64,000 bases of DNA from an uncultured Mycoplasmatota bacterium (GCA_900545005.1 UQXO01000002.1:1901-65900); one strand, 5' to 3'. Shown: positions 4,933-49,786, counted from the first letter of the stretch. Notes: generated by a model from the sequence alone, not told the origin. Translations and numbers: made by a program.

Positions 4933-4933
4933 A

Positions 4934-5761: not shown

Positions 5762-6068
5762 ACTTTTCTATCACTACTAAAACTCATATGCCTATACTTT
5801 ATCACATTATTAAAAAGATTTGTTAATAATTTACCATAAGTATATCAATTAAAGTATTATAAAACACCACTACACCAAGCGATGTTTAAAACAGGCTTGC
5901 AATAATATTTTTATCATTTTATATCAATTTTTTTCATATTCTGTGCATTTTTTCTCATTAAATTATGAATTTGAGTAATTTACATTCGTATGTTGATCAG
6001 ATTTAGAAGGCTTTAGTAAGTTTGTTAATGCTTGGTGAATATAAAAAGAACATTAAAATTTTTTTATC

Positions 6069-6086
6069 GGAGCTAAATAGAAAATA
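6069..6086 (+). repeat. 18-nt direct repeat copy 2 (GGAGCTAAATAGAAAATA) in non-coding DNA
   Basis: Perfect match to 2875-2892. Confidence 0.8.
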
Positions 6087-6140
6087 TGCCTATTCACGTT
6101 TTTTATTTAGATAATAATTATAATGTAGTGTTTAACATAA

Positions 6141-6166
6141 AAATAAAGAGTTTCTTTATTTTTTGG
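6141..6166. terminator. hairpin plus T-run overlapping the histidine kinase stop codon
   Basis: AAATAAAGAG ttt CTTTATTTTTT; AT-rich stem, so only moderate support. Confidence 0.45.
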
Positions 6167-7160
6167 CAACAGGAAATTTAATATGAAATTCAAAGAAATT
6201 AGTATAATTGTCATTTTTCTTTATTTCACAACCATATTCATAATTAAGTGAAGTTAAAATTTCTTTTACCAAACTTAGTCCAACTCCTGTACCTTTTGAA
6301 ATACAACTTTTTCCTCTATACCCTCTTTCAAAAATTTTTTCCGTTTCATCAACACTTACAGAATTAGTTATATTACTAATGCTCACTTCTGTATATTCCG
6401 AAGTTTCTAAAAAATTAATATTTATGCAATCTTTTGAAATTGAATGTTTTATAGCATTTTCCAAAAGAATAAACATAACAAGATAAACATTATTTGTCAA
6501 AATAAGAATATTATCTTGATTTGGTGAAAGATTAATTTTTATTTTGCGTTTACTTGCCTGATATCTCAATGTTAATTTTAGCTTCATTAATTGTGGATAT
6601 ATTTTTGAATATATTCTGCGATTATTTGCTGGCATAGGGCCATCTAGAACGTTTAATCTGTAATTTATTAAATCGTATAATGAAGTTATGGCTTTAAGAT
6701 TATCGTCATTTTCCATTAAGTCATGATAACGAGCATCTATTGACTCAGTCATACTATTAAAGTATGAACCTATATTTCTTAGATCGTGTATACAATCTCT
6801 AAACTCAATATTGTTCATAATTAGTTGTTCAATGTCGGTAATTAAACTTATAATTTGAGTTCTTGTATAGATGTCAAAATCTTTTATTTTTTGAGATTGA
6901 CTTTCAATATTTTTTCTAACTTTTTGATCATAATCTTTTGTTATTATACAAGTATAAATTGTATTTCTATTATAAAAAGAATAAAATCCATATGGACATT
7001 TATGAATGCCTTTTAACTGATTTTCGAAAATTTCATCGTAGTACTTTTTACATTTTCTATTTTTGTTTTTAAGACATTCTTTACAAAATTTTGGTATTTT
7101 TTCTTCTGTATCACATAATAACTCGTGTGATGATTTATCATAAATTACTAACGATTTCAT
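6156..7160 (-). CDS. cytoplasmic histidine-kinase-like protein with Cys-rich N-terminal domain
   Basis: No TM segment. N-terminus has C16, CxxC (FCKEC), C37, C55 and C71. H-box-like CIHDLRNIG; N-box LLENAIKHS; G2-like GTGVGLSLVKEI. The DxGxG G1 box is not evident (SNITNS in its place). Confidence 0.7.
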   Translation of the reverse strand: MKSLVIYDKSSHELLCDTEEKIPKFCKECLKNKNRKCKKYYDEIFENQLKGIHKCPYGFYSFYNRNTIYTCIITKDYDQKVRKNIESQSQKIKDFDIYTRTQIISLITDIEQLIMNNIEFRDCIHDLRNIGSYFNSMTESIDARYHDLMENDDNLKAITSLYDLINYRLNVLDGPMPANNRRIYSKIYPQLMKLKLTLRYQASKRKIKINLSPNQDNILILTNNVYLVMFILLENAIKHSISKDCININFLETSEYTEVSISNITNSVSVDETEKIFERGYRGKSCISKGTGVGLSLVKEILTSLNYEYGCEIKKNDNYTNFFEFHIKFPVAKK

Positions 7161-7861
7161 TATTTACTCTCCAAATATAAATTAATTGCTTTAATAATTA
7201 AATTTATTATATCAACTACAGGTTGTAAATTTTCATATTTTTCTAATTCTTTATATAAATTCTTAGTGGTGTTTTCACCTTTCAATATGCTTCTAACATA
7301 GCAGTCTTCTAACACAGCTATACTTGTTATTGAGGCACCATTTTTTAACAAATTATCACGATTTGTTATCCAAAATTTTATAGGATCATTAATTTTTGAA
7401 ATATTTTCATCTATTATTTCAGCCAATTCTATACTTTTTAAGTTTTTTGTTATTATTCCGTCTACACATTCAGAATATCTGCTAATTTCAACGCTTTGAG
7501 GTTTATTGCTAAATATATAAACAATTTTTTCTGGGTAAGTGCTTTTAATAAGTTTAGCTAAGGCAGCACCTTGATATTTTTCACTTAAATTTGTTGCTAT
7601 GCCATTTATATCGCAAAATATAAAATCATAGGGTTCTATATCTGATATTTTAACAAACTTTTCCATTATCGTTATATCTAAATATCCAATACTCTTCAAA
7701 CCATTTTCATCGAATCCCTCATCATCGATAAATAATAGTCTTATATTTTTCTTATCTTTTATTGAGACGTTGTTTAACTTTACTTGAGATTTTTTTAAGT
7801 CTTCTATTGTTAAGAACTTCTTCATTACTTTAGATCTAAATAACATTTCTAAACATTCCAT
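7160..7861 (-). CDS. receiver (REC) domain protein with unknown ~100-aa C-terminal helical domain
   Basis: LLFIDDEG (acidic pocket), FIFCDINGI (phospho-Asp position), VYIFSNKP (S/T and K). No recognisable DNA-binding output domain. TAATG stop/start overlap with the kinase gene. Confidence 0.65.
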   Translation of the reverse strand: MECLEMLFRSKVMKKFLTIEDLKKSQVKLNNVSIKDKKNIRLLFIDDEGFDENGLKSIGYLDITIMEKFVKISDIEPYDFIFCDINGIATNLSEKYQGAALAKLIKSTYPEKIVYIFSNKPQSVEISRYSECVDGIITKNLKSIELAEIIDENISKINDPIKFWITNRDNLLKNGASITSIAVLEDCYVRSILKGENTTKNLYKELEKYENLQPVVDIINLIIKAINLYLESK

Positions 7862-19757: not shown

Positions 19758-19781
19758 TTTTAAAACTTCCTTTTCTTTCCC

Positions 19782-19810
19782 ATAGTACCAACCTCCCCTC
19801 TCTTTGTCAA
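19782..19810 (-). promoter_or_regulatory. candidate sigma-A promoter of the ruvA operon
   Basis: Minus strand TTGACA - 17 nt - TACTAT, about 25 nt upstream of the ruvA ATG. Confidence 0.55.
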
Positions 19811-20380
19811 GATGGGATTGGTCTTTTTTGGTTTTTACTTTGCTAATACTGGTATTAATTTACCCCTCTATATATAATATATTAGGAGTCCACCTCGATT
19901 TTAATTCAAAAATGCTAAACTTTTCAAAAAAAATGGTTAGTTTCGCTTAAATTCCACCATATGCTAACTTTAAAGTTAAAAAAGAACTACAGATAACCAT
20001 AAATTTTTTTTATCTTTAGAACCCCTAGACCTCGAATCGGTAAAATATATTTCCAAAATAAAACATTCTAAACAAGAAAAAACAATATAAGTGAATATTA
20101 TCTATTTCTTAAACTTTACTTTTCATATTCCAACCACTTATATGGTTATAAACTCTATAAAAGAAAATGTAAATCAAATGTCAATATGAATACCTTGGAA
20201 AGTCAGTATTTATGGGACATCTACCAATTTTGCCACAGCTATGGCAAAATTCATTATCCCTACTTTTTATATAAAATTCAGCAAAAAATAATTGTAATTT
20301 TACGAACTTTAAGGTAGTATACTATATACTTTAGATGATACCCATTCAAGGAATATTTTCATTATTTATATAAGGGTATC

Positions 20381-20405
20381 AAAAAAAGAACTCTTTATGA
20401 GTTCT
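20381..20405 (-). terminator. rho-independent terminator of the Tad-like operon
   Basis: Minus strand AGAACTC ataaa GAGTTCT followed by TTTTTTT; overlaps the TAG stop at 20404-20406. Confidence 0.7.
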
Positions 20406-21192
20406 AACCATTCATCATCTGCATTACGGCAAGTACCAAAAGAATCATAACTCCAAGACCAGTGGAAATAAGCATACTCATAGTCTTATTTTCCATCTTA
20501 TCTAATCTTTCTTTATACTTTGTATCACGAGCTTTTTGTTGAAGATTAGAAATCGATCTAGAGAAATTTAATAATTGTTCTTGTTTTCTATCTTGACGAC
20601 CTAAACCTAAACGATAAAGTAAACGCATCATACGCATAGAATCTCTTACTGGATAAGTTCTTGCAAACTCCATATAAGGTTCAATGGAACTATCACCAGA
20701 ATTAATCTTGGCAATCATTTCAAGTAAGCCCTTCTTAAAGATTTCAGGAGCCGTATCCACGCTTTTACCAATCGCAACAGGTACCGTATAATGTTGAATT
20801 AAGATTTCTAAACCTTTTAAGTAATGAGGTAACATCGCATCAATAGTATGTAAGTTATTTTTATAATAACTCTTTAGATTACTATAACTAGATTTAAAAA
20901 TTAAAATTCCAGCGACAATTGCCACTATCACATAGATATAGCTAAACTTATTAATAAAGAAACAAATGACTAATAAAGCGGTTACTAACCCGGTGGTGAT
21001 TCTTTTCCCAAATAAGTAGTCAGGATCAACACCTTCACCATACTTAGTACGGACTAAAAAGTCATAATCACTTTCTTTAAATCTTAAGAAGTAACCGACA
21101 TTATCATTAATACACTTTTTAATATCAATTACCTTGGTCTTATTTAGAACAAAAATATATAAAGCAGATAACCCTAATATTTCAAAATACAT
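20404..21192 (-). CDS. TadC-like polytopic membrane protein (type II secretion system F-like)
   Basis: Called from its position after the CpaF/TadB-like genes, N- and C-terminal TM helices with a central cytoplasmic helical domain, and its size. Not called from a specific motif. Confidence 0.5.
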   Translation of the reverse strand: MYFEILGLSALYIFVLNKTKVIDIKKCINDNVGYFLRFKESDYDFLVRTKYGEGVDPDYLFGKRITTGLVTALLVICFFINKFSYIYVIVAIVAGILIFKSSYSNLKSYYKNNLHTIDAMLPHYLKGLEILIQHYTVPVAIGKSVDTAPEIFKKGLLEMIAKINSGDSSIEPYMEFARTYPVRDSMRMMRLLYRLGLGRQDRKQEQLLNFSRSISNLQQKARDTKYKERLDKMENKTMSMLISTGLGVMILLVLAVMQMMNG

Positions 21193-21194
21193 AT

Positions 21195-22097
21195 CTACTC
21201 AACCCCCACATCTTCATTGTAATATTTTTCTCCTGTTAACAAGAAGTAACAGTTGATAATAATAATTAGGTGTAAGATTAATTTAACATACCACATATCC
21301 AGTAATTTAATATATGAGTCTTTTCCTAAAAGAAATTGCATTACAGCGGCTAGTAAGAACAAAGCCATACCAAAGGTTAAGAATTTCTTATGGAAGTTTG
21401 CTCTATCCATTCTGTCACGATAGACACTTTCTACTAAAGCATCGATATCTAAAGACATATTTTCTAAAGACTCACCAGCATCGCGGGAACCTTCCTTAGT
21501 TATCTGGTAGAACAATTGGTGCATGTTTTTAACCATATAATAAGGATACTTTTCATTGAAATAAGCAATCGATTGATCAATGGTACCATTAGCATAAGCC
21601 ATATTTATCATCATCTGAACATCATCTACTACAGGTTTTTCTAAGATACCAGATTCTACAACACCTTCTAGAGACTTAACAAAACTCTGAGTCGTATTAA
21701 ATTCCATGATAACGTTAGTCGTATAAGTCTGAATCTGTTCGAAGATATATTCTGAATAGATTCTTTGCGTACGTAAATAAGATAAGTATGGGATAAAAGC
21801 AATAGCAATCGCAGCATATATAATAGTTATAAATAGATTATAGAAGTAAAGATAAGCAATACCGCCCGCAACAACTCCAAATAAAACAACTTGACTAATA
21901 TATTGTTTAACAGTATATTCCTCGCCTAGCTCTTTGGTTTTCTCTCGGACTTGTTTAAAACTATAAGGAGCATATTTATCATAAAGACTAGTAACACCAT
22001 CTTGAATAAATTTAAAAGCTCCTTTAGCGCCGTCTGTCGCATTCATACGATAAGAGTAAGCAAAGAGTGCTAAAGCAATTAAGATTATTAATTCCAT
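21195..22097 (-). CDS. TadB-like polytopic membrane protein (type II secretion system F-like)
   Basis: Same topology logic: a TM helix at the N-terminus, a pair mid-protein (VVLFGVVAGGIAYLYFYNLFITIIYAAIAIAFIPYL) and TM helices at the C-terminus. Lies directly after the CpaF-like ATPase. Confidence 0.5.
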   Translation of the reverse strand: MELIILIALALFAYSYRMNATDGAKGAFKFIQDGVTSLYDKYAPYSFKQVREKTKELGEEYTVKQYISQVVLFGVVAGGIAYLYFYNLFITIIYAAIAIAFIPYLSYLRTQRIYSEYIFEQIQTYTTNVIMEFNTTQSFVKSLEGVVESGILEKPVVDDVQMMINMAYANGTIDQSIAYFNEKYPYYMVKNMHQLFYQITKEGSRDAGESLENMSLDIDALVESVYRDRMDRANFHKKFLTFGMALFLLAAVMQFLLGKDSYIKLLDMWYVKLILHLIIIINCYFLLTGEKYYNEDVGVE

Positions 22098-22107
22098 ATT
22101 ATTCCTC

Positions 22108-23424
22108 CTATAAGACTTCTTCTGGGATAGTGCTTGTTGGATTTTCTTTATTTAGGGTATTTAAGGCTGTATTATTAAGATTTTCAGGGATTCCATTAGC
22201 AATACTAGTATTTCCTCTACTTGGATTTACTCCGACATTAGGTTGATTATTCAAAGGAGTTTGATCATTACCTGGACTAGGAGTACTAACTTTATTAGTT
22301 CCTCCACTTTCTTCTTCTTTATACTTTTCTAAATCAGCTTCTATATCACCATCATACTCCGTATTAGTTCCTAGATGGAAAGTATCTTTATCTAACATAA
22401 CATTTTGAATACTTAAGTAATCTAGTAAGTGTTGAGTAGGATTTTTTAAGATATAATGTCCATCTAGAGCTTTTTTATAGATTTCATTAGTCTGAGGTTT
22501 ATTATTTTCATCGACATAGAATTCACATATTTCAATAATCTCTCTTTGGAAACGATTAAATTTCTTACTGAAATAACCTTTAACATAAATACCTACTTGG
22601 ACATAACGATGAATAGTATTTAAGAATTGTTCAACGTCTTGACTAGATTCCATCAAGGAATACATACGTAGGGGAATGGATGAGGCTTTATCAGCATGAA
22701 TAGTAGAAAGAATATTATGTCCTGAGGAAATAGCATTTCTTACTGACATAACGGCCTCGCCAGAACGTACCTCGGATAGTAATATCCAAATAGGGTTCTG
22801 ACGCATACAAGCTACTAGAACATCAGTATAACTACAGATATTATTAGTCTTCATAGCGACAATATCACGATGGGGGAAAATACGGTCTAAGTGTAATTCT
22901 AAAGTATCTTCAATCGTAATAATTTTTTCATTTTCCTTAATATTAGAAGCCAAGTATTTTAAAAGTTCAGTTTTACCAGAACCGGTTTCACCAGCGACAA
23001 TAATATTAGCATGACCTGCTACACACTTCATTAAGAAGTCATGTAAGGTTTCCGTGATATATTCTTCATTAATTAATTTTTGTTTATTAAGACGGATTTT
23101 AGCGGGAGTCTTACGGATAAGACAAGCAATACCGTTCGTAGCAATTGATTCATGGATGAAATTCATACGAAGTTCAGCAGATTCAGCATCTAATAAGGGG
23201 TGCGCCATATTGAAGGTTTTCCCCATAACATTAGAACACTGGAAGGCAAGCTTTTCCATAAAAGTATTATTAATATCGGGACGTTCTACTTGATAAACGC
23301 CTTTGGATAAGGTTTTTAACCAAACTTGACCATTATTAGAATAAGAAATATCGGTAATATCATCATCAGCTAAGAATTCGGCCAAGGGACCGAAGTCCAT
23401 TTGTTCAAAGATTGCTTCATTCAT
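22108..23424 (-). CDS. CpaF/TadA/VirB11-family secretion ATPase with a disordered C-terminal tail
   Basis: IIVAGETGSGKTELLKYL (Walker A), ITIEDTLEL, PIWILLSEVRSGEA, GHNILSTIHA. The last ~70 aa are N/P/S/T-rich. Confidence 0.85.
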   Translation of the reverse strand: MNEAIFEQMDFGPLAEFLADDDITDISYSNNGQVWLKTLSKGVYQVERPDINNTFMEKLAFQCSNVMGKTFNMAHPLLDAESAELRMNFIHESIATNGIACLIRKTPAKIRLNKQKLINEEYITETLHDFLMKCVAGHANIIVAGETGSGKTELLKYLASNIKENEKIITIEDTLELHLDRIFPHRDIVAMKTNNICSYTDVLVACMRQNPIWILLSEVRSGEAVMSVRNAISSGHNILSTIHADKASSIPLRMYSLMESSQDVEQFLNTIHRYVQVGIYVKGYFSKKFNRFQREIIEICEFYVDENNKPQTNEIYKKALDGHYILKNPTQHLLDYLSIQNVMLDKDTFHLGTNTEYDGDIEADLEKYKEEESGGTNKVSTPSPGNDQTPLNNQPNVGVNPSRGNTSIANGIPENLNNTALNTLNKENPTSTIPEEVL

Positions 23425-23438
23425 AATATTCCTTCTTT

Positions 23439-24212
23439 CTAATTAGTTATGGTTTCTGTTTTATTATATATATAATTAGTAATTTCTTCAGTTGAGACGG
23501 TAGTAGAACCTTCTTCTTTAGTATAGTTAGAGTTTCTTGGTACGGGAATAATTTCCACATTAGTAACATATTCACTCTTCTTTAGAAGGTCAAATAACTT
23601 ATCTTCAACTTCGAATAGTAAAGCGGCTGGTGTTCCTCCTGATAGAGTATTTTCTAAAAGAGAATTACCACTAGAGTCTTTAATTGCTTTAATCTTAATT
23701 GATTTTACTAAGATAGCCATCATAACTTTACCATTGTCTTTAGCTTCCATATAAAGGTCAATATAATCTCCGGGACGGAAACGATTCGAATAGGTTGATT
23801 TATTATTAACTTTTAAAGAATAAACCGTATAACCATCTTGCATATTCATAAAAGCATAATCAGGCATTTCTTCTTCTTTTAAGACGGATTCGGTATAGAA
23901 TAAACTTTTAGCGGGAATATCACTAGAATAACTAGAATAATAATTAATTAGTTCTTTATCCGTAGTTATTATATTCTTAGCATTTTTAACAAGGGTACGA
24001 GGGACTTTAACGTGTCCTATCATCTCCTTAGTAATTTGGGTTTTTCTAGGAATTTCTTTTAGAGCATAAGGAATGCTAACAAGGTCGATAGCCTTATTAA
24101 CTCGGTAGTTATAACCGATTACTAAGACTAAAATTCCGGCTAGAATACATAAAATTGTTACGGTGTTTTTATTTTGAATAAATCTTTTTATTGGTGCTAG
24201 GGCATTTTTCAT
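23439..24212 (-). CDS. CpaB/RcpC-like (SAF domain) pilus-assembly protein, paralog 2
   Basis: N-terminal TM, then VSIPYALKEIPRKTQITKEMIGHVKVP (SAF-like), ...GDYIDLYMEA..., IKIKAIKDSSGN, TPAALLFEVEDKLFDLLKKSEY. Clearly paralogous to the next gene. Confidence 0.7.
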   Translation of the reverse strand: MKNALAPIKRFIQNKNTVTILCILAGILVLVIGYNYRVNKAIDLVSIPYALKEIPRKTQITKEMIGHVKVPRTLVKNAKNIITTDKELINYYSSYSSDIPAKSLFYTESVLKEEEMPDYAFMNMQDGYTVYSLKVNNKSTYSNRFRPGDYIDLYMEAKDNGKVMMAILVKSIKIKAIKDSSGNSLLENTLSGGTPAALLFEVEDKLFDLLKKSEYVTNVEIIPVPRNSNYTKEEGSTTVSTEEITNYIYNKTETITN

Positions 24213-25027
24213 TAGTTAGTCGCCTCATTTCCATTAGTATTAGGGGTATTAAAATTCTGACTGACACTAATTGATTTTGATAAAATAAAGTTTTGGATAT
24301 ATTGAGAATCAATTGTAGCATCTCTATCGGTTGATGAATAGCTAGCATTTCTTGGAATTGGCATAACACTTATACCACCAATGTACTCGGTTTTCTTTAA
24401 AAGAGTATATAATTCATCAGGAACTGCAAACCACATCTGAGCAGGAGTTCTAGTATCACTGGATGATTCAAAGACATCATTTCCACTAGAGTCTAGGACT
24501 GCTAAGACTTTTATTCCTTGAATTAAACGACCAAAGATAACTTTATTCGTACTAGATGTTGCTTTAACAAATAAATCAACATAATTTCCTGTATAGATAG
24601 AATTTCCATAAGTCGAGTTGATATCAACTGCTAGGTTATAAGCAGTATACCCATCTGGAATATTAGAAAATTCATTAGTAGTAGCTTCTTCAAAAGAGAC
24701 AATATAGTCTTTATAGAAGAAACTATTAGCGGGAATAGTTTCTCCATACTTAACATAATTACTAGTTATGTTAGCACTAGAAGTTACTATTCCTAGACTT
24801 TTAGCTATTCTTTTTGGTAATTCGGTATAGCCAATAGCATCTGCCGTAATTTGACTACGACTAGTTAATTCTTTTTTCGCATAAGGGACTCTAATAGTGG
24901 TTACGGCTTGATTGACACGGTAGTTATAGATAGCATAAAGACCAATGATACCAAGGATAACAATGATTATTGTTAGAGTGTTCTTATTCGATAAGACTTT
25001 TTTTATTTCTTGTTTTACTTTATCCAT
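24212..25027 (-). CDS. CpaB/RcpC-like (SAF domain) pilus-assembly protein, paralog 1
   Basis: N-terminal TM, IRVPYAKKELTSRSQITADAIGYTELP, GNYVDLFVKA, IKVLAVLDSSGN, TPAQMWFAVPDELYTLLKKTEY. TAATG-type 1-nt overlap with paralog 2. Confidence 0.7.
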   Translation of the reverse strand: MDKVKQEIKKVLSNKNTLTIIIVILGIIGLYAIYNYRVNQAVTTIRVPYAKKELTSRSQITADAIGYTELPKRIAKSLGIVTSSANITSNYVKYGETIPANSFFYKDYIVSFEEATTNEFSNIPDGYTAYNLAVDINSTYGNSIYTGNYVDLFVKATSSTNKVIFGRLIQGIKVLAVLDSSGNDVFESSSDTRTPAQMWFAVPDELYTLLKKTEYIGGISVMPIPRNASYSSTDRDATIDSQYIQNFILSKSISVSQNFNTPNTNGNEATN

Positions 25028-25043
25028 TTTTATTCTCCCTTAT

Positions 25044-25856
25044 TTAATCTATTTTATTTAGCCAGCCCCTAGAAATAGCATAACCAATAATGCCACTTGT
25101 TGTGTTAGAAGCGGCCGCACCAGTTTCTCTAGTTGGATCGTTGTTAATAAATTCATTTAGAGAATCACTACCAAAAGAACGGCTAAAGTCTAAAATCATC
25201 GCTTTAATAAATTCTGACCAATAAGTACCAACATTATTATCAACTTTACTAGCATCGCCATTCTGGCTAGCCCATTTTCTTAAATTTGGTAAGTTAGCAC
25301 TCAAAATACGATTTCTTAAGTCTTGATTTAAACCATCAGTACCAGTTTCATTTAAGACCTTTTGTAAGGTGATAGCAAGTTCTGGAGTTGGATTATAAGT
25401 TAAACATTTTTGAACGCTATCGCCACCGGTTGTACTCGAAGTAGTTCCCTCAGAACCGCCAACTAAAACCATATCAATTTTATTAACTAAATCAAAGCTA
25501 TTGTTAGTTGTACCAGCAATATTTACAGAATTACTAACACTAGATATTTTAACACTTACTTTTGGAGGTACTTCATGAATATCATAAAATGATATATTAT
25601 ATTCTTTTGTCATTGTTGCTGACTCAGAGAAACGGCGAATGAAGTTTTCAATAAACTTTTCTTTAGAAATTTTTAAATCACCATATAAACGATAATATGA
25701 GTAGTCAACAGCATCAACCATCGATGCCGATGCTGTTTCCTTTAACTCGTAATAGTCTTGGGTAGTTCCCGTTGTGGTACTACTAATTAGAAGCATAACG
25801 CCTATAACTAGGATACCTAGCATTACTAACCAGTAGCCCCAGTAAGATTCTTTCAT
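25044..25856 (-). CDS. N-terminally membrane-anchored protein (270 aa), unknown function
   Basis: WGYWLVMLGILVIGVMLLISS hydrophobic N-terminus and T/S-rich linkers. Lies between the giant gene and the CpaB-like genes. Confidence 0.6.
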   Translation of the reverse strand: MKESYWGYWLVMLGILVIGVMLLISSTTTGTTQDYYELKETASASMVDAVDYSYYRLYGDLKISKEKFIENFIRRFSESATMTKEYNISFYDIHEVPPKVSVKISSVSNSVNIAGTTNNSFDLVNKIDMVLVGGSEGTTSSTTGGDSVQKCLTYNPTPELAITLQKVLNETGTDGLNQDLRNRILSANLPNLRKWASQNGDASKVDNNVGTYWSEFIKAMILDFSRSFGSDSLNEFINNDPTRETGAAASNTTSGIIGYAISRGWLNKID

Positions 25857-25873
25857 ATTCTTCTACCTCTTTT

Positions 25874-28800
25874 CTATTTTAAATAACTATCGATTTTACA
25901 AGATGAGTATTCACTATTAGATTGAATATCAGCAAGGAATTGTGATTTATATTCACGAGATTCTTTACTAATTGAACTTGCACTATAGTCGCCAAATCCT
26001 AAATCGATTATTTCTTGATTTTTATTATAAGTCTTAATAGCATTCATACAAGCAGAATTCATAGTAATAGAGTATTCTAAGTATTTTTCATCATCTGCAT
26101 AAATACCATCGCCAACGTCTTCAATTTGTTTAATGATATCACTAAGTTTTTGACCTTTTCTGTCAGTAGTATTTTCAACACCAGAAGTTTCACCACTCCA
26201 GTTATATCCCTTAGATGAATTACCATTAGGGAATAAATCATAGTTAGATACAACCTTAGTATAGAATTGTAATGTACCATTATTACCAATTAAAGCCGAA
26301 CTATTATTAGTAGTTATAGTGGTTTGAAGAGCGCTATCTTCACCATATAATTTAATACCTTGGCAATGATTGTTACATACATTGTTATAAATTTCATTGC
26401 TGGCTGGGACTTTAGTTGCTTCTACATAGCTACAACAAGTATCACCATCTGCTAGTAGTTTATTAATACAAGCATTAGCTTTATTTTCGTATTCTTCATA
26501 TAACTTGTCGTCTTTATTAGTATGAAGGAATAAGTCTAAGTAAGATTTTTCATCATCATTTTGACAATCAGATGATTTCAAGATATCTTCACAGCTTGGA
26601 ATAACAGTATCTGGTTCTGCTTTAACTTCGTAGTTGCATACATATTGGTTAGCAAGAAGTCCACTAACATAACCATTATCATCAACAATACGACCTAAAG
26701 AATAAGTATTGTTATAGTATTGACCTAAATTATTAATTTTAATTTGATAACTATATTTACCTGGCATTGTTGATAGAGCTATTGGATATACTAAACCTTC
26801 AGCTTTTTTCTCTGAGCCATCAGTCGTTACGATGTCAGTATTTTTAATAGCTTCATCACCAGCATCAACTAAGATTGGAGCTTCGGTTGTATCATTAAAG
26901 TTATTAGGATTGGTTACATAGATACCTTTATTAGAATATGTCCAGTATGGCTGACTTGATTTATAATAGATAAATTTCTGTGAGCCTTGACCATTAATAC
27001 TTGAGGCAATATCATTTACTTTATTTAAGAATCCTGATGTAGTACCGCCAACTTTATTAGTAGCCCAAGTTGCTATATTAGATAATAAACTTTGTAGATT
27101 GAAACCAGCAATTGAGACACCTGGATTACCATATCTTGAAATAGTGGCAACACGTTTAACGTTACGGTATTTAACATTTTGTCCCTCTTGAACATGAGCA
27201 ATTAATTTTGTAACAATTGAAGTTTCTAGTCCTTTGAAATTTGCACTTGCAATTGATGATGTTGCTTCTTTAAAGACATTAGAGGTTCCCTTATAACTTA
27301 AATCATAGGCAATTGAACCTGGTATATAAGTATTTACTGAACCAGCTACATCTTCATCAGAAGATAAACCAAACAAATTACATAATTTTTCATTACCTTT
27401 ACAGATATTATTAGTAAATTCTTGAACTTGAGGTATTTCTTTAAGATTACTAAATAATTGTCCGATAACTTCCTTATTTTCATTAAAGAATTTAGCTACA
27501 TCATTAGAGTTATTACCATTTAATAATGCAGCAGCAATGCTACCTAACATTCCATCAGATGTTACACAAGTACCATCCATAATATTATTCCAATCTTGGA
27601 TTTTATTTATATCAACATCTTTATAACAATAATAGGTTGAAACATCAGGAGTTTCATTTTTATTAATAGCTTGTAAAGTAATACTATTAGTTGTTTTATT
27701 ATTCTTATTAGCCATAAATTCTAATAAGTTATTATTTTTATAACCATAAGTAAATGTTATCTCTGGGTCCATTTGATATTCTTGATCCCAAATTGTGCAA
27801 GCATTCATATTTGAAGCTTTACTAAGAAGATCCGTACGGTAATTTTCATATTCATCTTTATATTTACGCATTTGTTCTCTTAGACTGGCTATATAAGCAT
27901 AATATGGACTAAATGTTCCTCTTAAGTAATAATAGCCATCAAAAGCATAATCTAAAACTTCAGATATATCCTTTTCAGTTAAAGATAATATATCTTTGGC
28001 ATCACCAACAGCTTGAAAAATTTCATTTATTGTTGAAAGTACTCCACTTACATCACCAAGACTACCAAAGCTTGAAGAATTTAGTTTCTTTATGCTTCTC
28101 TTGGTTGGATTTTTCAAGATATTACTTGCATTAGAAATAGCATTAAATGTTACTTGAACATTACCAATAGCTTTAGTTGTCGTATTAGTTGCCTTTTGGA
28201 ATGATTCTACACTCTTTCCTAAGTTTCTAAAATTAAAGTAAACACCAAAATGCATTGATTTCATAATATAGCTGCTAGGATCCATTATCCAAACTTCGAT
28301 TTCATTTCCGGTTGTTTCTTTACTAATAGTTTTAGTTGTATCCTGGACAAATTTTGAACTTAGTTTAGTTTCATTAGAAGTAGAATTCTCTAATTTAAAG
28401 ACATCAGTTGTATAAGTATATGGTTGAGCTTTTTGAATATTAAAAATTTTAAGTGTACCTTGAGTACTTGAATTAGTATTAGTTACGACATTTTTAACAG
28501 CAGTTGAACCTTGGGCATAAATTTGGCAAACGTCAGCACCAAGAAATCGTCCTACATTACATAAGAATGTTATAAAGCCTTTACCAATAGCATCTAAAGC
28601 CACACTGCCAAGACTCTTTAAACCAGTTTTGGCTAAATTACCAACCTCATTAGCTATTGTGTCTTTAACACCATCAATTGAAGTATTAATTTTATCTTTA
28701 TATTGTTCAAAAGTATCACCAAATGCAGTTTCAGCAGATTCTTTAAAGGCGTTAGTAATTGTATCAGAATTTAAATCACCACTAAGAAATTCTCCGGCAA

Positions 28801-31800
28801 TATAAATAGCAAAGTTTTCCATACTATTTGAGAAGTTACCTTGAATACGCCAGAATTCTTCACCCGTTGAAACACCTAGAGCTTCACTAATAATTTTATC
28901 TCTAATGGTTGCTAAAGATGAATTTAACTGAACTTTAAAGTCATTTATTGCACTAGTAGTATCAATCATTGTAGCATCATTTTTAACTGGACTTTCTACT
29001 GGCTCGGTAACAATAGCCTGTCTAAATGAAGAATACTGATTAATATAGTTATTATAGGCATCTAACATTTTTTGCTTTGTATTAGCAGCTTCATTTAAAT
29101 ATTTAGTATTATCTACAGAAGTAGTAACACAAGTTCTTTGACCAGCAACACCAACAGTTGCATGATATATATTATCTAAGTTAGTAGAAATATATCTTCC
29201 TGCATAAGTAGTTCCAAGATTACCTGGCATCTTAAAGGCATAATCTTCTTTACAAACTATTTTACAATAATCATTAGCAGTTTGAACAGTATATGAGTTA
29301 CCATTTGGGTCAGTAGCTTCTACCCCATTCTCACCAATTATACATTTCTCCCAGTTAACAGTAAACGAACTAGTAAGGGAATCCACTAGACCAGAAACAG
29401 AACCTAGATTAGTAGCATTCATAACTTGGTCTTTAATGGAGCCTAAGTAATTTAGAACACCATTTAAGCCATCACCGGTTGAAGAAACTACAGTTTGAAT
29501 AGTACTTGAGAATGATAAAATATTGTTCATTACTTGATCCATACCAGTGGCTTGAGCTAAATAATCAACTAAGTAAGAAGACGCTTTAGCAATATCTTTT
29601 AAACTAGAAGCAGAAGAGGCACTGTCAACGGAATTTTTAAGAGCTTCTAATAAGTTTTTAGTATCGGTAGATATCTTAGTATTACTAGCAGCTTCATAAA
29701 TTTCAGCCCACTCCTTTTTTACATTATCATAGCCATTATCCGCAACGTTAACCATTGTTTCTAAGAATAGTTTTGATAATACTTTGAAGTTATCTTGAGC
29801 GGTCCCATTAAAGTTAACATTGTTAAGGGCTTGACTTAAAAATCTAGCGGTCTGGTTTTGATTATTAGTATATAACGAATCTAAAAATTTCAATTCATTT
29901 TTGATATTCTTAGTAATATTTACTTTATCAGCAAAGTTATAAAGTAAAGCACTTGAGTTCTTTAATCCACTTATAGATAAGCCATTTAAGCCAATGTCCT
30001 TAAGTAATTGAACCATAGAAGTAGCATTGCCAATTAAAGTTCTTAAATCTCCAATATTATTAATACCACTCATAAGAGAATTAAATAATGTTCCTGATTG
30101 GGTTCCTTCAATTAAATAGAAAACCGTTTCTGAATTAGTACAAGGAAGAGCGAAAGTTGCACGACAAGTATTTTCCTTTTTCTTACCCATATCAATTGGA
30201 ATTTCTTCCATTTTTTCAGCTTCACCATTATTAAAAGCAATAAATTTCTGATAAGTTTTAATAACATGTTTAGTTTGTTTTTTAGCAGTTGTAGTTAAAA
30301 CTAAAATATTAGTAATTGATTTTTTAGAAACGTAACTAGTAGTAACTCTAAGTTTAATAGAATCGCTTTCTCCCAATGATTGATATACATTTTTTTTAGT
30401 TACTTTAAATTTAGCAACAGTGTAGCCGCTAGAATCTCTAGTCCAGTCGCTAATAGTTGTGATATCTGAGTCATTAATTGTTATAGTTGTACCACCATCA
30501 GTAACAGCAGTAATCTTAAAATTTTCTTTACTAGTTGCTTCCGTTATTAAGCGGTCATCGTCACTTTTTAATTTGACGGTAAATGTTACTTCAAAACCGG
30601 TATTTGACTCAATCGTCTTTGGAGTTTCATACTCTACTTTGAATTCTACTTCGTTCTCAGCTTTAGTAATAGATTCATTGCCAGTAGCAAACGTTGTTAC
30701 ATCATTATAAACTTTCGTTAACATAGCATCCGCATTAGTAAAATGTTTTTTATTGTAACCATCATAAGCCGTTACCAAGTCTCGCGAGGTGTTAATTGTT
30801 GCTATTATATGTGGGTTATATACTGAAAATTCACTTCCGCCATAATTAAAAATAAGCATTCTGGCAACGTTATTTAAAACGTAATCAGCATAATATTCAG
30901 CTCTAGTACCACTTGTTCCTGAAGCATTTTTAATTTCATTTAAATTATTTTCGTCAGCATACCAATTAGAATATAAGCGATATAATCCTCGCCAAAGTAC
31001 AGAATTTTCCTTAATGATTGTTTGAGGCTGAGAATGATATTTTACTCCATCTGACTCAGGACCTGTGGCACCAGGATCAACGCAAAAGGCCGTAATTGGT
31101 GTTGTCGTATCTTGACCATCGCAAGCATAATATGTTTTATAAACATTATAATAGTTATGAGCTCCTACTGGTGATTTGAATAAAGGGTCATTTTTATAAC
31201 TTTCTACTTCTTTAACAATAAAGTCGGTACAAGCATTTTTACCATAAGTACTGCTATTATTAGCTTGACTAACAACTTCTCCGGTTTCAGTATCCACTGT
31301 CGTCGCTGGTAAAGACTCATTTAGCTTTTCACAAGCATTTCTAGTAGTTGCTGATTTAGAAGTATCAGTTTGACGATACTTGCCTGATTCTGCTGCTTCG
31401 CTAGCTTTCATCCATTTATAAGTAGTAACATTAGAAATTTTTACTTGATAACACGCTTCTGTATCATCTTTTGTTTGCTTAGTATCACCACATTTGCTAG
31501 TATCAGATTGAATGTTACTAGTGTTGCAACTGTTTTTAGAAGTTGTTTTATAACCACCAGGTACCCTACAACAAACATTATCATTAGATACATCAGCTAC
31601 TATCGTTATATTTACCCTTCTGGTAACTTCACTTGCAGTTCCAGCATTAATCTTGTATTTGAATGTTAAAGTATTGCTAGCACCATTTTGAATACTGTTC
31701 TTTTTTGTCTGGTCAAAAATTATTTTATAATCATTTCCATTTTTTCTAGCAACAGCAAAGGCAGTGTTATATGCTCCTCTTGAGTATGTTGGGGCTCCAT

Positions 31801-32041
31801 CAAGAGTGATTTTACTTTTTTCTACTTTCGTTCTATTAGAAATCATACCTATTACAGTGCTGACTAATTCAGACATATTCATATCAGCTTTGGTTATTTT
31901 TTTGGTTATTGAAATGCTTGATAAGGAGCCAGCTACATCACCAGTTTCGTCTTCTGCATAAACTACATTGCAGTCGATAAATCCAAATCCTATAATTAGA
32001 AATAAGCAAATGATAATTACTTTTTTAATACTACTTTTCAT
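25874..32041 (-). CDS. giant secreted Cys-rich protein (2,055 aa), unknown function
   Basis: Signal peptide MKSSIKKVIIICLFLIIGFGFIDCNVVYA/EDE. Many Cys throughout, no LPXTG or C-terminal TM. Beta-rich Ig-like stretch (EVEFKVEYETPK..FEVTFTVKLK) and long A/S/N/L-rich helical stretches. Confidence 0.8.
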   Translation of the reverse strand: MKSSIKKVIIICLFLIIGFGFIDCNVVYAEDETGDVAGSLSSISITKKITKADMNMSELVSTVIGMISNRTKVEKSKITLDGAPTYSRGAYNTAFAVARKNGNDYKIIFDQTKKNSIQNGASNTLTFKYKINAGTASEVTRRVNITIVADVSNDNVCCRVPGGYKTTSKNSCNTSNIQSDTSKCGDTKQTKDDTEACYQVKISNVTTYKWMKASEAAESGKYRQTDTSKSATTRNACEKLNESLPATTVDTETGEVVSQANNSSTYGKNACTDFIVKEVESYKNDPLFKSPVGAHNYYNVYKTYYACDGQDTTTPITAFCVDPGATGPESDGVKYHSQPQTIIKENSVLWRGLYRLYSNWYADENNLNEIKNASGTSGTRAEYYADYVLNNVARMLIFNYGGSEFSVYNPHIIATINTSRDLVTAYDGYNKKHFTNADAMLTKVYNDVTTFATGNESITKAENEVEFKVEYETPKTIESNTGFEVTFTVKLKSDDDRLITEATSKENFKITAVTDGGTTITINDSDITTISDWTRDSSGYTVAKFKVTKKNVYQSLGESDSIKLRVTTSYVSKKSITNILVLTTTAKKQTKHVIKTYQKFIAFNNGEAEKMEEIPIDMGKKKENTCRATFALPCTNSETVFYLIEGTQSGTLFNSLMSGINNIGDLRTLIGNATSMVQLLKDIGLNGLSISGLKNSSALLYNFADKVNITKNIKNELKFLDSLYTNNQNQTARFLSQALNNVNFNGTAQDNFKVLSKLFLETMVNVADNGYDNVKKEWAEIYEAASNTKISTDTKNLLEALKNSVDSASSASSLKDIAKASSYLVDYLAQATGMDQVMNNILSFSSTIQTVVSSTGDGLNGVLNYLGSIKDQVMNATNLGSVSGLVDSLTSSFTVNWEKCIIGENGVEATDPNGNSYTVQTANDYCKIVCKEDYAFKMPGNLGTTYAGRYISTNLDNIYHATVGVAGQRTCVTTSVDNTKYLNEAANTKQKMLDAYNNYINQYSSFRQAIVTEPVESPVKNDATMIDTTSAINDFKVQLNSSLATIRDKIISEALGVSTGEEFWRIQGNFSNSMENFAIYIAGEFLSGDLNSDTITNAFKESAETAFGDTFEQYKDKINTSIDGVKDTIANEVGNLAKTGLKSLGSVALDAIGKGFITFLCNVGRFLGADVCQIYAQGSTAVKNVVTNTNSSTQGTLKIFNIQKAQPYTYTTDVFKLENSTSNETKLSSKFVQDTTKTISKETTGNEIEVWIMDPSSYIMKSMHFGVYFNFRNLGKSVESFQKATNTTTKAIGNVQVTFNAISNASNILKNPTKRSIKKLNSSSFGSLGDVSGVLSTINEIFQAVGDAKDILSLTEKDISEVLDYAFDGYYYLRGTFSPYYAYIASLREQMRKYKDEYENYRTDLLSKASNMNACTIWDQEYQMDPEITFTYGYKNNNLLEFMANKNNKTTNSITLQAINKNETPDVSTYYCYKDVDINKIQDWNNIMDGTCVTSDGMLGSIAAALLNGNNSNDVAKFFNENKEVIGQLFSNLKEIPQVQEFTNNICKGNEKLCNLFGLSSDEDVAGSVNTYIPGSIAYDLSYKGTSNVFKEATSSIASANFKGLETSIVTKLIAHVQEGQNVKYRNVKRVATISRYGNPGVSIAGFNLQSLLSNIATWATNKVGGTTSGFLNKVNDIASSINGQGSQKFIYYKSSQPYWTYSNKGIYVTNPNNFNDTTEAPILVDAGDEAIKNTDIVTTDGSEKKAEGLVYPIALSTMPGKYSYQIKINNLGQYYNNTYSLGRIVDDNGYVSGLLANQYVCNYEVKAEPDTVIPSCEDILKSSDCQNDDEKSYLDLFLHTNKDDKLYEEYENKANACINKLLADGDTCCSYVEATKVPASNEIYNNVCNNHCQGIKLYGEDSALQTTITTNNSSALIGNNGTLQFYTKVVSNYDLFPNGNSSKGYNWSGETSGVENTTDRKGQKLSDIIKQIEDVGDGIYADDEKYLEYSITMNSACMNAIKTYNKNQEIIDLGFGDYSASSISKESREYKSQFLADIQSNSEYSSCKIDSYLK

Positions 32042-32757
32042 TAAACAATTTCCTCCTTTCTCTTTTTATTTCGTAGATATATAAAGGTACCAGTACCACC
32101 AATTATTATCAAGATAACAATAGTAACTATAACCCAGTGTTTCTTAACAAAATTAGTAGTTTCTTCTAAGATACCTTCTTTTCTAGTTTCATCATTAACA
32201 CTTTTATGAGTCTTAGCATATTCATTAATACCATTAACAAAGTCAATATAAGCTATATCATCAGCAGTCATAAACTCTTGACAATAAAAATAATCAGGAT
32301 AATCACTACAAATTGATTCATTATAGTACTGGTTAGCTCTTGGTACCGTAACATTTATCTGTCTAATAGCCTTTTTCCCACATTCAGTATCAACCGGATA
32401 AATTGAAATAGTATATTGTTTAACTTTTCCCATACCACCAGTAGAATAAGATACTTCCCCATCAGTTTCTGGGTCATAATCAAGACGATATTTAGAACTA
32501 TCATATTCTAAGATAGCATAAATATCACTGGTTAAATTGTAAACGTCAATCATGCCTAAGTATGAAGTTCCGGTTATCTCTTCACCACTATCTGGGTCCG
32601 TACTCGTATAATTATAAGAATAAGGATAGCCCTTAGCAGTTACGGCCCCAGCCGCATTATTAAGTTCAGCTTGGCGTTCTAAAGTACAATATTCTGCTTT
32701 TACTTTAGGAATAAAAAGTAAACTTAAGAGAAAAAATAGTAAATATTTTCTTTTCAT
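32041..32757 (-). CDS. secreted protein with C-terminal TM anchor (238 aa)
   Basis: Signal peptide MKRKYLLFFLLSLLFIPKVKA/EY; C-terminal HWVIVTIVILIIIGGTGTFIYL followed by RNKKRKEE. 1-nt overlap with the giant gene start. Confidence 0.65.
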   Translation of the reverse strand: MKRKYLLFFLLSLLFIPKVKAEYCTLERQAELNNAAGAVTAKGYPYSYNYTSTDPDSGEEITGTSYLGMIDVYNLTSDIYAILEYDSSKYRLDYDPETDGEVSYSTGGMGKVKQYTISIYPVDTECGKKAIRQINVTVPRANQYYNESICSDYPDYFYCQEFMTADDIAYIDFVNGINEYAKTHKSVNDETRKEGILEETTNFVKKHWVIVTIVILIIIGGTGTFIYLRNKKRKEEIV

Positions 32758-32767
32758 GTTAACCTCC

Positions 32768-33643
32768 TTAGACGTTTTCCGATTTTATAAATCGATAATT
32801 TTTATCGAATGTATATTTGATAGATGGCATACCTTCAGTATTTTTACAATCTTCTAAAGCACGACCATTAGATATATAAATTTCTGGTAAAGTAGTTTCA
32901 CAATAAACTTTTTCTTTAAAGGCACTATCGTAAACTCCATACTTCATCTCACCATCAAATTGCATGACATTAAAATAATACTTAGCAGATATTTCATAGC
33001 CGCTAGAAGTCTTTTCTAAAGAACCTTTTTCACTTTCATAAGTGCCATCAGCATTTTCATCATCAGAATCTTCTTCATCAGTATAATCAACCATACTTAT
33101 TGGTATCATACATTCAGTATCATCGCAGATAACAGCATTTACTCCTCTAAAGAAGCCATCGGTTATAATTGTTTCTGGTTCCATTTTCAAATCTTTAAAC
33201 TTAGCCGCTAAGGCTTTATTAATAAATTTTATGGATAATTTTACTGTACCTAACTCTGTATCCTTATCAAACATATTAGCACCAGCCATATATTTAATTA
33301 GATCTGAGTCATTAAAGAACATCCTACTTAAAGTATAAAGAATTTTTACATTAGTATTGATATCATCAGAGTATGTAGCTCCCCAATAAATCTCATCAAC
33401 TGTACCAGTGCTATCAGTACTACTTATAAAGTCTTTAATACTATCCTCATCAAAAGGTTTAATAGCATCCTTAAGATAATTTTCAAATTCATTAGTAGTT
33501 GGATTATCTGGGGTTAATTCTTTATCCTTATGAAATATCTTCGAACAAATAAATATTATTAGCCCTATTAAAATCAGCCCTATTAATATGGATATAATTA
33601 TAGTTTTCTTATCTTTAAAATTAGGTTTTAACTTATTTTTCAT
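32768..33643 (-). CDS. N-terminally anchored protein (291 aa), first gene of the Tad-like operon
   Basis: TIIISILIGLILIGLIIFICS TM helix and acidic patch DYTDEEDSDDENADG. AGAAGGA SD upstream. Confidence 0.65.
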   Translation of the reverse strand: MKNKLKPNFKDKKTIIISILIGLILIGLIIFICSKIFHKDKELTPDNPTTNEFENYLKDAIKPFDEDSIKDFISSTDSTGTVDEIYWGATYSDDINTNVKILYTLSRMFFNDSDLIKYMAGANMFDKDTELGTVKLSIKFINKALAAKFKDLKMEPETIITDGFFRGVNAVICDDTECMIPISMVDYTDEEDSDDENADGTYESEKGSLEKTSSGYEISAKYYFNVMQFDGEMKYGVYDSAFKEKVYCETTLPEIYISNGRALEDCKNTEGMPSIKYTFDKNYRFIKSENV

Positions 33644-33748
33644 ACTTACACTTGTCCTTCTCTATCATAACTAATATAAGGATAACATTTTTTTCGTAAA
33701 AAAACAATTTATTCTTACAAAAATGGCTATTTTTTTTAAGGAAGCCAA

Positions 33749-33777
33749 TTGACTTTAGAAAGGGAATATGGTAAATT
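33749..33777 (+). promoter_or_regulatory. candidate sigma-A promoter of rpsD
   Basis: TTGACT - 17 nt - TAAATT, with TG at the extended -10 position. Confidence 0.55.
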
Positions 33778-33941
33778 ATTCTTGCATTTAATTGGCAGTG
33801 CCTAAAGTTTAGAGAAGTGTCTATCACGGTTTTGGTTATAAGTATCTTATGACTGCCTAAAGAGAAAATATCTGGATAGACTCCCCTAGAAACGGAAGGT
33901 ATACTAAGTAAAAGCAAAATTATTAGAAAGGAGAATATTTT
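33778..33941 (+). promoter_or_regulatory. ~165-nt rpsD 5' leader (possible S4 autoregulatory leader)
   Basis: Long untranslated leader containing TGCCTAAAG twice (33799 and 33854). rpsD leaders bound by S4 are known in Bacillota. Confidence 0.35.
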
Positions 33942-49498: not shown

Positions 49499-49522
49499 AA
49501 AAAAAGTGACCAATTAGTCACT
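49499..49522 (-). terminator. rho-independent terminator containing the stop codon of the DinJ-like gene
   Basis: Minus strand AGTGAC taattg GTCACT followed by TTTTTTT. Confidence 0.7.
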
Positions 49523-49786
49523 ATCTTCACAATGAGAATCACATTTTTCACAATCGCATTCACATTCTTCACAATTGCACTTGCAATTGCAATCACAATC
49601 ACAATCACAATCGCAATCACATTCACAATCATCGAAACCGATATGAAAAGGAATACCCATATGATGTAATGATGCGGTTAAGAAAATGTTGATAGCAGTT
49701 TCTGTGTCTAAGCCTAGGCTATCAAATAATTCATCACAATTACTTTTTAAATCTTTGTCTACTTTGACATTAACTAGTTCTTTCAC
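49514..49786 (-). CDS. RelB/DinJ-like antitoxin domain fused to a Cys-rich (CxC)n acidic tail
   Basis: N-terminus VNVKVDKDLKSNCDELFDSLGLDTETAINIFLTASLHHMGIPF parallels DinJ (ARIDEDLK...GLT...LPF). C-terminus CECDCDCDCDCDCNCKCNCEECECDCEKCDSHC has 15 Cys in 38 aa. Confidence 0.75.
   Translation of the reverse strand: MKELVNVKVDKDLKSNCDELFDSLGLDTETAINIFLTASLHHMGIPFHIGFDDCECDCDCDCDCDCNCKCNCEECECDCEKCDSHCEDSD
49517..49630 (-). repeat. in-frame TGY-GAY (Cys-Asp) hexanucleotide-type coding repeat
   Basis: Minus strand TGTGAATGTGATTGCGATTGTGATTGTGATTGTGATTGCAATTGCAAGTGCAATTGT..., with three perfect TGTGAT units in a row. Confidence 0.8.

Follow-up and report, generated by a model that had tools for sequence, protein, structure and literature searches.

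What is built by an operon that joins genes resembling those of a Tad-type filament motor to a gene for a 2055-aa secreted protein and that has no canonical Flp pilin gene among them? The question is raised by nine genes located at positions 20404-33643 of a 64-kb stretch of DNA from an uncultured Mycoplasmatota bacterium (GCA_900545005.1, UQXO01000002.1:1901-65900), hereafter called the window; of this genome, the analysis covered the 64 kb. The operon was compared with 79 species-level genome loci and 80 metagenome loci of relatives (designated with L and a number). The answer that we favour, with a confidence slightly better than even, is that the operon provides the front half of a Tad-like (type IV filament) machine of the monoderm kind, the genes of which are split between two loci.

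The open reading frame (ORF) calls confirmed the positions of nine co-directional genes on the minus strand, as had been originally predicted, with junctions consisting of 1-nt overlaps or gaps of 2-17 nt. In the order of transcription they code for two small membrane-anchored proteins (g1 and g2), the 2055-aa protein (g3, hereafter the giant) and a DUF5411 protein (g4), together referred to as the cargo module, followed by the motor genes coding for two CpaB/RcpC-like proteins (g5 and g6), an ATPase (g7) and two putative platform proteins in the TadB and TadC positions (g8 and g9).

The ATPase g7 (22108-23424, 438 aa) belongs to the T2SSE family (Pfam PF00437, E 2e-28), scores under every NCBIfam equivalog cut-off including those of TadA, TrbB and VirB11 (119 vs 250 bits for the latter) and matches the PDB sequences of CpaF, FlaI and VirB11 with 70, 67 and 66 bits, respectively. 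Its best plasmid matches are Bacillaceae proteins annotated as 'CpaF/VirB11 family'. Judging by these scores, it is a member of the CpaF/FlaI/VirB11 group and not a clear CpaF orthologue. The C-terminal ~90 residues (22108-22400) make up a tail of low complexity with many N, P, S and T residues, the length of which varies widely among strains and species, with the whole protein having 360-558 aa.

The CpaB/RcpC-like proteins g5 (24212-25027; 271 aa, an N-terminal transmembrane (TM) segment followed by SAF and RcpC domains) and g6 (23439-24212; 257 aa) are paralogues sharing 38% identity. Both fell just under the gathering score of Pfam RcpC (E 1.6e-6 and 1.2e-4, respectively), and the narrow family profile had no match among the PDB sequences. 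Within the family, RcpC was matched in 24 of 26 members and SAF in nine, and phmmer searches against the annotated CpaB of a B. cereus plasmid gave E 9e-23 for g5 and 4e-21 for g6, which bears out the predicted CpaB/SAF nature of both paralogues at the family level. In public assemblies, 283 indexed blocks contain the exact 257-aa protein of the window.

The platform proteins g8 (21195-22097; 300 aa, four hydrophobic segments) and g9 (20404-21192; 262 aa, three hydrophobic segments) appear to be divergent T2SSF-like proteins and have no Pfam or NCBIfam T2SSF match. Nothing was found among the PDB sequences with the narrow profiles of g8 and g9 or with the wide g9 alignment, and the AlphaFold2 (AF2) model of g8, obtained from a shallow alignment, had a predicted local distance difference test score (pLDDT) of 59 and returned only noise from the PDB in Foldseek. 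An exhaustive search for g9 yielded 409 representative homologues, with PF00482 being matched, weakly, in four of 61 distant ones. Canonical TadB and TadC references were taken from annotated Sinorhizobium, Ralstonia and Streptomyces loci and compared with the two families using hhalign, which gave probabilities of 95% (E 3e-8) for the g9 family and 93% (E 3e-7) for a diversified g8 alignment against TadB and TadC combined, compared to 96.6% for TadB against TadC and no more than 0.3% for the negative controls. Before distant homologues and fusion proteins were added, the narrow g8 alignment had given non-significant results against both narrow g9 and TadB. Values of 92-96% were also obtained for g8 and g9 against the unannotated proteins occupying the TadB and TadC positions in Bacillaceae plasmid Tad loci (96% for g8 against the B. 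cereus protein in the TadB position).

In distant relatives g8 and g9 occur as natural fusions of 475-520 aa (P0327, P0386, P0337, P0339, P0338, P0351 and others), one of which (L202:4805-6265) follows a gene coding for a 352-aa T2SSE ATPase; this fusion is flanked by 45-aa and 65-aa ORFs starting with MIKQL(I/L)EEYG, which are Flp-like in look. The family of g8 is a large one with at least 7995 homologue clusters, none of which is annotated. The proposal that g8 and g9 are TadB- and TadC-like therefore fails with Pfam and NCBIfam and is rescued by profile-profile comparison, and their identification as a probable TadB/TadC-type platform pair is supported at the level of sensitive methods only.

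A motor of this kind would need filament subunits, and candidates for them were found next to it in other genomes. Directly after g9, about 40 of the 79 genome loci and most of the 80 metagenome loci contain a pilin-like block consisting of genes for two ~80-aa proteins (F9) with 98% conservation over MKEATGELN, a hydrophobic helix and a Cys-rich tail, two ~150-170-aa DUF5411 paralogues starting with MRESIGG, then a 330-350-aa protein (F8), and one to four F7 proteins with weak matches to PF18895 (T4SS_pilin, VirB2-like). The block is absent beside g9 in the clade of the window and from the whole 64 kb, as determined with tblastn and hidden Markov model (HMM) searches; a weak F7 match to the window ORF 2928-3857 (E 0.01) was judged to be due to chance.

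Four observations argue that the block has not been lost from this clade. Orphan blocks exist that have at least 8 kb upstream free of motor genes, and the F8 identities of such blocks mirror the motor-protein identities of the clades having no block in cis. The F8 cluster includes CCY88946.1 (348 aa) from Mycoplasma sp. CAG:956, the organism of L011, which belongs to the clade of the window. Finally, the 479-kb scaffold_6 of ERZ28614723 bears both loci, with the operon at 314-335 kb and a block of the order F9-F9-paralogue-paralogue-F8-F7-F7 at 34-55 kb, about 270 kb apart; the motor proteins of this operon are identical to those of the window and it has the same rpsD and ruvAB flanks at 90-95% nucleotide identity. 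In the window's lineage, the candidates for the filament subunits, namely the two ~80-aa proteins and the two DUF5411 paralogues (~165 aa), thus have their genes at another place on the chromosome, beside a type IV secretion system (T4SS); this is known from the near-identical strain and not from the window's own one.

The genes following the block code for a ~740-aa polytopic protein, a ~109-aa protein with two TM segments, an ATPase of the VirB4 type with TraC-like and P-loop_TraG/DUF87 matches, and a SpoIID+M23 hydrolase, with some loci (L179-L181) having in addition a T4SS-DNA_transf/TrwB-type (VirD4-type) coupling protein. By their predicted products, these genes are a monoderm T4SS, contiguous with the Tad-like genes in full-length loci, for example in L173:11108-21047, L179:10157-20010 and L195:11108-21047, all of which are related loci and not the window. 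Neither a VirB4 ATPase, nor VirB6/VirB3-like channel parts, nor a coupling protein was found in the window operon with Pfam and NCBIfam.

The operon itself contains one pilin-like candidate. Residues 1-131 of g4 (25044-25856, 270 aa) match DUF5411 (PF17424) with E 1.1e-52 and 177.9 bits against a cut-off of 30, covering profile positions 1-130 of 134, and include an N-terminal hydrophobic helix followed by predicted strands. This N-domain is related to the ~150-170-aa paralogues of the block (hhalign 98%, E 1.5e-13), and DUF5411, the small paralogues and the ~80-aa proteins all share the motif M-[KR]-E-[AS]-x-x-[GW] with a stretch of about 22 hydrophobic residues behind it. DUF5411 and the small paralogues stand where minor pilins of the TadE/TadF/TadG type would be expected. 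On account of this homology and the shared motif, g4 would be a modular protein in which a variable C-domain has been added to a pilin-like module. In the clade L009-L020 the N-domain is 81-99% identical and the C-domain 32-78%, the latter changing in step with the C-terminal region of the giant even in a strain with an identical motor, a pattern of co-divergence that fits a specific contact between DUF5411 and the giant.

The other three cargo proteins are the giant, g2 and g1. The giant (25874-32041) is predicted to be of the Sec-secreted type with a signal-peptide-like N-terminus and contains 34 Cys (1.65%), clustered at residues 157-320 and 1802-1893; it may be called Cys-rich, as originally proposed, relative to typical Firmicute exoproteins only, and not in general. 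Segments conserved in the family correspond to residues ~895-1010 and ~1600-2040 of the window protein, with the N-terminal and central regions being variable, and no Pfam domain, PDB sequence match, internalin or leucine-rich repeat signal was found in it. Four giants from the same clade contain a Peptidase_M23 domain at ~520-660 with E values from 1e-9 to 2e-20 (L010:2120-8986, L017:3027-9983, L018:1175-8431, L020:2635-9981), M15/VanY is found in another giant and collagen repeats in one; the window giant possesses none of these three. The g2 protein (32041-32757, 238 aa) has a signal peptide and a C-terminal TM anchor with a basic tail, is found in about 70 loci, always immediately upstream of the giant, and shows invariant C24, C126, C150 and C159 in the alignment. 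The g1 protein (32768-33643; 291 aa, five Cys) is anchored by an N-terminal TM segment (residues 15-33), has no family match in Pfam or NCBIfam and is confined to the window's own clade, where homologues with 46-94% identity occur in 10 loci.

The order g2-giant-DUF5411-one or two CpaB-ATPase-g8-g9 is retained in about 65 of the 79 species loci, most exceptions being truncated contigs, so that the giant, the 238-aa protein and the 270-aa protein proved to be constant partners of the motor genes. The giant evolves fast; identities to the window are 60-100% for the motor proteins and 22-60% for g1, g2 and the giant. In L010, g5, g6, g8 and g9 are 100% and the ATPase 94% identical, yet g1-g3 are only 41-61% identical, and the nucleotide alignment of window positions 27151-33110 with L010 and L198 reveals a replaced g1-g2-giant cassette between conserved flanks. 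The giant is hypervariable over its first ~200 residues even where strains agree by 96-99% in the remaining sequence (window 31450-32000 compared to L001, L003 and L009). The cargo module of g1, g2, the giant and DUF5411 evolves and recombines independently of the motor, and the hypervariability together with the cassette replacement between strains points to surface exposure of the cargo.

Extra g1-g2-giant-DUF5411 modules free of motor genes are found in some metagenome-assembled genomes (MAGs; L018-L020), and second modules stand directly after g9 in L005 (10001-15260) and L022; DUF5411 is present in all of them. The extra modules, of which there are also examples in L026, are ordered g1-g2-giant-DUF5411 or DUF5411-g2-giant, and some are located at a recX/prsA site. 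No cargo module occupies this site in the window, where other genes are flanked by the recX-like gene (61078-61851) and the prsA-like gene (54163-55233); between these two lies a 1535-aa ORF (56441-61048, minus strand) with no signal peptide and no obvious family by eye.

Upstream of g2, on the divergent strand, many relatives (L007:3456-5443 and ~28-43 loci) have genes for a Metallophos membrane phosphoesterase, a CPBP/Rce1-like protease and a PedC/BrcD-like thioredoxin. Such a thioredoxin would suit disulfide formation in Cys-bearing exported proteins, and the intramembrane protease is a candidate for leader processing. All three are absent from the whole window according to the tblastn and HMM searches.

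The machine could work as follows. The giant would be exported by Sec and held at the membrane by g1 and g2, with its disulfides forming outside the cell; the variable C-domain of DUF5411 would capture it, and the pilin-like N-domain would join the small paralogues in a priming or tip complex. Beneath this complex, the ~80-aa pilins would be polymerized by the ATPase and the platform, and the giant would be presented at the end of a wall-crossing pilus contacting other cells or surfaces, where those alleles that bear an M23 domain might cut peptidoglycan. Several results weigh against this scheme. The F9 proteins and small paralogues of the block show no significant similarity to Flp, TadE and TadG references. 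The G/XXXXEY signature of Flp is missing from the conserved MKEATG/ELN N-terminus, which is therefore a processing candidate only, and no A24 prepilin peptidase was detected in the window or in ~170 related loci by phmmer with three A24 references. The AF2 model of DUF5411, also from a shallow alignment, reached a pLDDT of 61 (~35-58 in the N-domain) and gave nothing above noise against the PDB in Foldseek; the structure models neither back nor oppose the predicted pilin and platform folds. The giant starts with a Sec signal peptide of the ordinary kind and is itself no pilin, its attachment to a filament being pure inference. Moreover, several lineages have the motor and the pilin block apart, which would also fit a looser functional coupling.

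TadZ was likewise sought with references and found neither in the window nor in the fetched loci; F8 resembles it by eye only, with non-significant results from hhalign against four TadZ proteins and from Pfam and PDB profiles. The original prediction of an operon with no pilin or prepilin peptidase thus stands insofar as a canonical Flp ORF, an A24 peptidase and TadZ are all missing from the operon and the rest of the 64 kb, and does not stand insofar as DUF5411 itself appears pilin-like and a pilin-like block is located elsewhere in the clade.

These negative results would suit a machine resembling a type II secretion system, pilin-less or with a pseudopilus only, in which DUF5411 alone would be a short piston or stalk and the motor would export or anchor the giant and its small partners with no extended pilus being formed. 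Such a machine, which corresponds to the original interpretation and which we consider quite unlikely, would agree with the lack of small pilin genes in cis in the operon and in sister clades (L005, L021, L022, L027), with DUF5411 being the sole pilin-like gene that always travels with the giant, and with the failure to find a prepilin peptidase or TadZ in the window and related loci. It is harder to reconcile with the block standing beside the motor in most relatives and being kept in trans in the window's clade (scaffold_6 and CAG:956), where it would be expected to be lost if it were dispensable; besides, the giant has a Sec signal and a monoderm has no second membrane for it to cross. The idea of a motor working without pilins was consequently not borne out, given the pilin-like DUF5411, the block adjacent in most relatives and the block ~270 kb away in a near-identical strain. 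It is even less probable, and to our mind hardly credible, that the giant and the small proteins encoded with it are surface proteins of an ordinary kind, placed beside a Tad-like operon but functionally unconnected with it. The giant bears no resemblance to a pilin, and cargo-only modules do exist away from any motor (L018-L020, L026, L049, L050), but these always include DUF5411 and belong to MAGs that also hold a motor locus (L015/L020, L016/L019), the gene order with its 1-nt overlaps and 2-17 nt gaps is kept across ~65 species, and distant relatives with a fused platform retain a large protein upstream of the ATPase.

Another explanation, unlikely in our view, is that the operon is one arm of a composite apparatus for cell contact or DNA transfer formed with the T4SS that neighbours it in relatives, in which the ATPase would act partly as a VirB11-type partner and the giant would be an adhesin for mating pairs or target cells and a wall-cutting factor. 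The function would then be conjugation-like transfer, DNA uptake or exploitation of other bacteria and not simple adhesion. This would explain why the Tad-like genes run straight into T4SS genes in full-length loci, why VirB11 is matched by the ATPase with scores as good as those for CpaF and why some giants carry M23 or M15 hydrolase domains, and it would have a parallel in the Patescibacteria, whose reduced genomes retain a relaxase-poor T4SS having arrays of VirB2-like genes. On the other hand, the ~270 kb separating the two loci in the window's clade means that the operon does not enforce co-function, a T2SSF-type platform and CpaB are parts of filaments and not of T4SSs, and monoderm T4SSs normally lack VirB11. 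A composite apparatus overlaps with the split Tad-like machine and does not exclude it.

The split Tad-like machine has its closest annotated counterparts on plasmids. The Tad locus of the B. cereus plasmid pN435-1.1 (L089) comprises genes for DUF5411, DUF4320, a large surface protein, CpaB, a ParA-like ATPase, CpaF, two membrane proteins and three Flp pilins, and the locus on a Streptomyces plasmid (L092) has the same layout. The monoderm Tad loci and the operon together with the block have in common the gene order CpaB/SAF, a CpaF-family ATPase, two single-domain platform proteins and small pilins, the last being candidates in our case, with the DUF5411 paralogues possibly corresponding to the TadE-like minor pilins that come next, and the operon further shares with them a large surface protein at the edge of the locus and the lack of a secretin. 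It differs from them in that the platform, the pilin candidates and a possible TadZ analogue are too divergent for Pfam and NCBIfam, there is no A24 peptidase in the locus and no G/XXXXEY motif, the locus is split in two and the CpaB gene is duplicated; the giant, whose family reaches ~2,450 aa, g1 and g2 have no counterpart there. The Peribacillus plasmid pA (L088) and L089 both hold DUF5411 and DUF4320. Their proteins in the TadB and TadC positions, their Flp-like pilins and a 181-aa protein all bear only the annotation hypothetical, and the 181-aa protein by eye has the look of an A24-type prepilin peptidase and is not recognized by Pfam; the Peribacillus locus also has a TrbC/VirB2-family gene. 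Another monoderm Tad/Flp (type IVc) system is that of Bifidobacterium breve.

A large Sec-exported non-pilin protein carried to the pilus tip by minor pilins is familiar from the type IVa priming complex, where the tip adhesin PilY1/PilC is encoded beside the minor pilins. PilY1 has ~1,100 aa and a beta-propeller and belongs to another class of pili with a different ATPase and platform; the giant shows no sequence similarity to it. The nearest well-studied example of one motor with several variable tip modules is the Kil Tad system of Myxococcus xanthus (Herrou et al. 2025, PMC12075869), which has interchangeable disulfide-rich minor-pilin Tip complexes at separate loci and depends functionally on another secretion apparatus. 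The multiple g1-g2-giant-DUF5411 modules per genome and the T4SS beside the pilin genes are reminiscent of it, and the role proposed for both is cell-cell contact. The Kil tips, however, are TadE/F/G-type heterotrimers with the variable domain fused to a large pilin, whereas the giant is separate and predicted to be Sec-exported, with only DUF5411 being pilin-like; Kil functions in a diderm predator with a type III secretion system (T3SS*) as the partner, whereas the system considered here belongs to a monoderm with a reduced genome, has a T4SS as the partner and is known from genes alone.

Originally the arrangement was not recognized as a described system, but a related operon had already been flagged computationally in 2022: an operon of 8-9 genes with a CpaF-type ATPase, a PilC/GspF-like protein, DUF5411 and a large surface protein was predicted in gut Clostridia (Miller et al. 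2022, Nat Commun, PMC9523054). Compared by description only, that operon shares these four components with ours and is likewise abundant in the human gut and uncharacterized. Its hosts are Roseburia, Ruminococcus and Eubacterium and not RF39-like Bacilli, its large protein has an internalin-like 'cell invasion' domain that was not found in the window giant, and no split architecture, cargo cassettes or T4SS linkage are described for it (PMC9523054). Chromosomal monoderm-type T4SSs with tandem, variable VirB2-like (PF18895) genes are found in Patescibacteria (bioRxiv 10.1101/2025.01.22.634366), which are similarly genome-reduced and uncultured; in our case the T4SS stands beside the trans pilin block of relatives and not in the window, and direct fusion with a Tad-like locus is unreported for Patescibacteria. 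With the pilin-like genes located elsewhere on the chromosome, the operon is probably an unusual split variant of a known machine and not a new machine devoid of pilins. What is new is the lineage, the split between motor with cargo and pilins with T4SS, the cassette-like giants with optional peptidoglycan hydrolase domains and the T4SS tie.

The hosts of the related loci are labelled "uncultured Bacilli", "Tenericutes", Mycoplasma sp. CAG:956 and CAG:472 and Coprobacillus sp. CAG:605, which we take to be RF39-type, genome-reduced, uncultured gut Bacilli, and the host of the window is considered an RF39-like gut Bacilli lineage from these names and not from phylogenetic placement. The GC content of the window is ~29%. 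The operon is flanked by housekeeping genes, rpsD on one side and ruvA, an NT5C-like gene and ruvB on the other, and the same setting with identical motor proteins is also present on long human-gut metagenome contigs. Prophage, plasmid or integrative and conjugative element origin of the operon was dismissed, since it sits at one place between rpsD and ruvAB in many strains, and a sporulation channel of the SpoIIIA type was dismissed as having a different gene set.

Transcription signals at both ends of the operon were originally predicted as a clean terminator and a divergent promoter. A terminator-like hairpin with a 7-bp stem followed by T7 does lie at 20387-20405 on the g9 stop codon (minus strand), at the end of the operon, but five such motifs were found in the region with 4.7 expected. 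Promoter-like hexamers are present in the divergent intergenic region between g1 and rpsD (33644-33941), the presumed promoter, at a number not above chance in AT-rich DNA (93 vs 75 +/- 10 expected). The 645-bp gap between the operon terminator and ruvA (19758-20403) contains no credible ORF and no Rfam match, the Rfam scan of the window having found two tRNAs and nothing else; in L010 and L198 its position is taken by a gene coding for a 387-aa protein with a PF12810 match.

Elsewhere in the window, a run of non-housekeeping genes at 2928-7861 in DNA of 24-25% GC codes for a 309-aa protein with TM and coiled-coil segments, a 362-aa P-loop ATPase, a 275-aa protein, a 334-aa histidine-kinase-like ATPase and a 233-aa receiver-like protein and may be a defence or mobile island. 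A 90-aa ORF at 49514-49786 (minus strand) has a tail made up almost entirely of Cys alternating with Asp, Glu or Asn (CECDCDCDCDCDCDCNCKCNCEECECDCEKCDSHC).

Recognition of the locus as Tad-like would provide function-level names for six families so far called "hypothetical", namely the TadB-like and TadC-like proteins, DUF5411 and its paralogues, the ~80-aa pilin candidates and g2. The hypervariable giant cassettes on a constant motor represent a natural strain marker and a likely determinant of partner or host specificity, and the T4SS link in relatives opens the question of how genome-reduced Firmicutes obtain what they cannot make. A bolder suggestion, unlikely as it stands, is that RF39-like Bacilli use a composite Tad-like pilus and T4SS as a contact organelle against other bacteria, with the interchangeable giant modules, some of them bearing M23 or M15 peptidoglycan hydrolase domains, choosing the partners and the T4SS moving DNA or proteins; if true, Firmicutes would have in this organelle an equivalent of the Kil system of Myxococcus and of the epibiotic or predatory way of life seen in Patescibacteria. 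The machine encoded by the operon and its distant block may be the main surface organelle of very common, uncultured human-gut bacteria that depend on other organisms.

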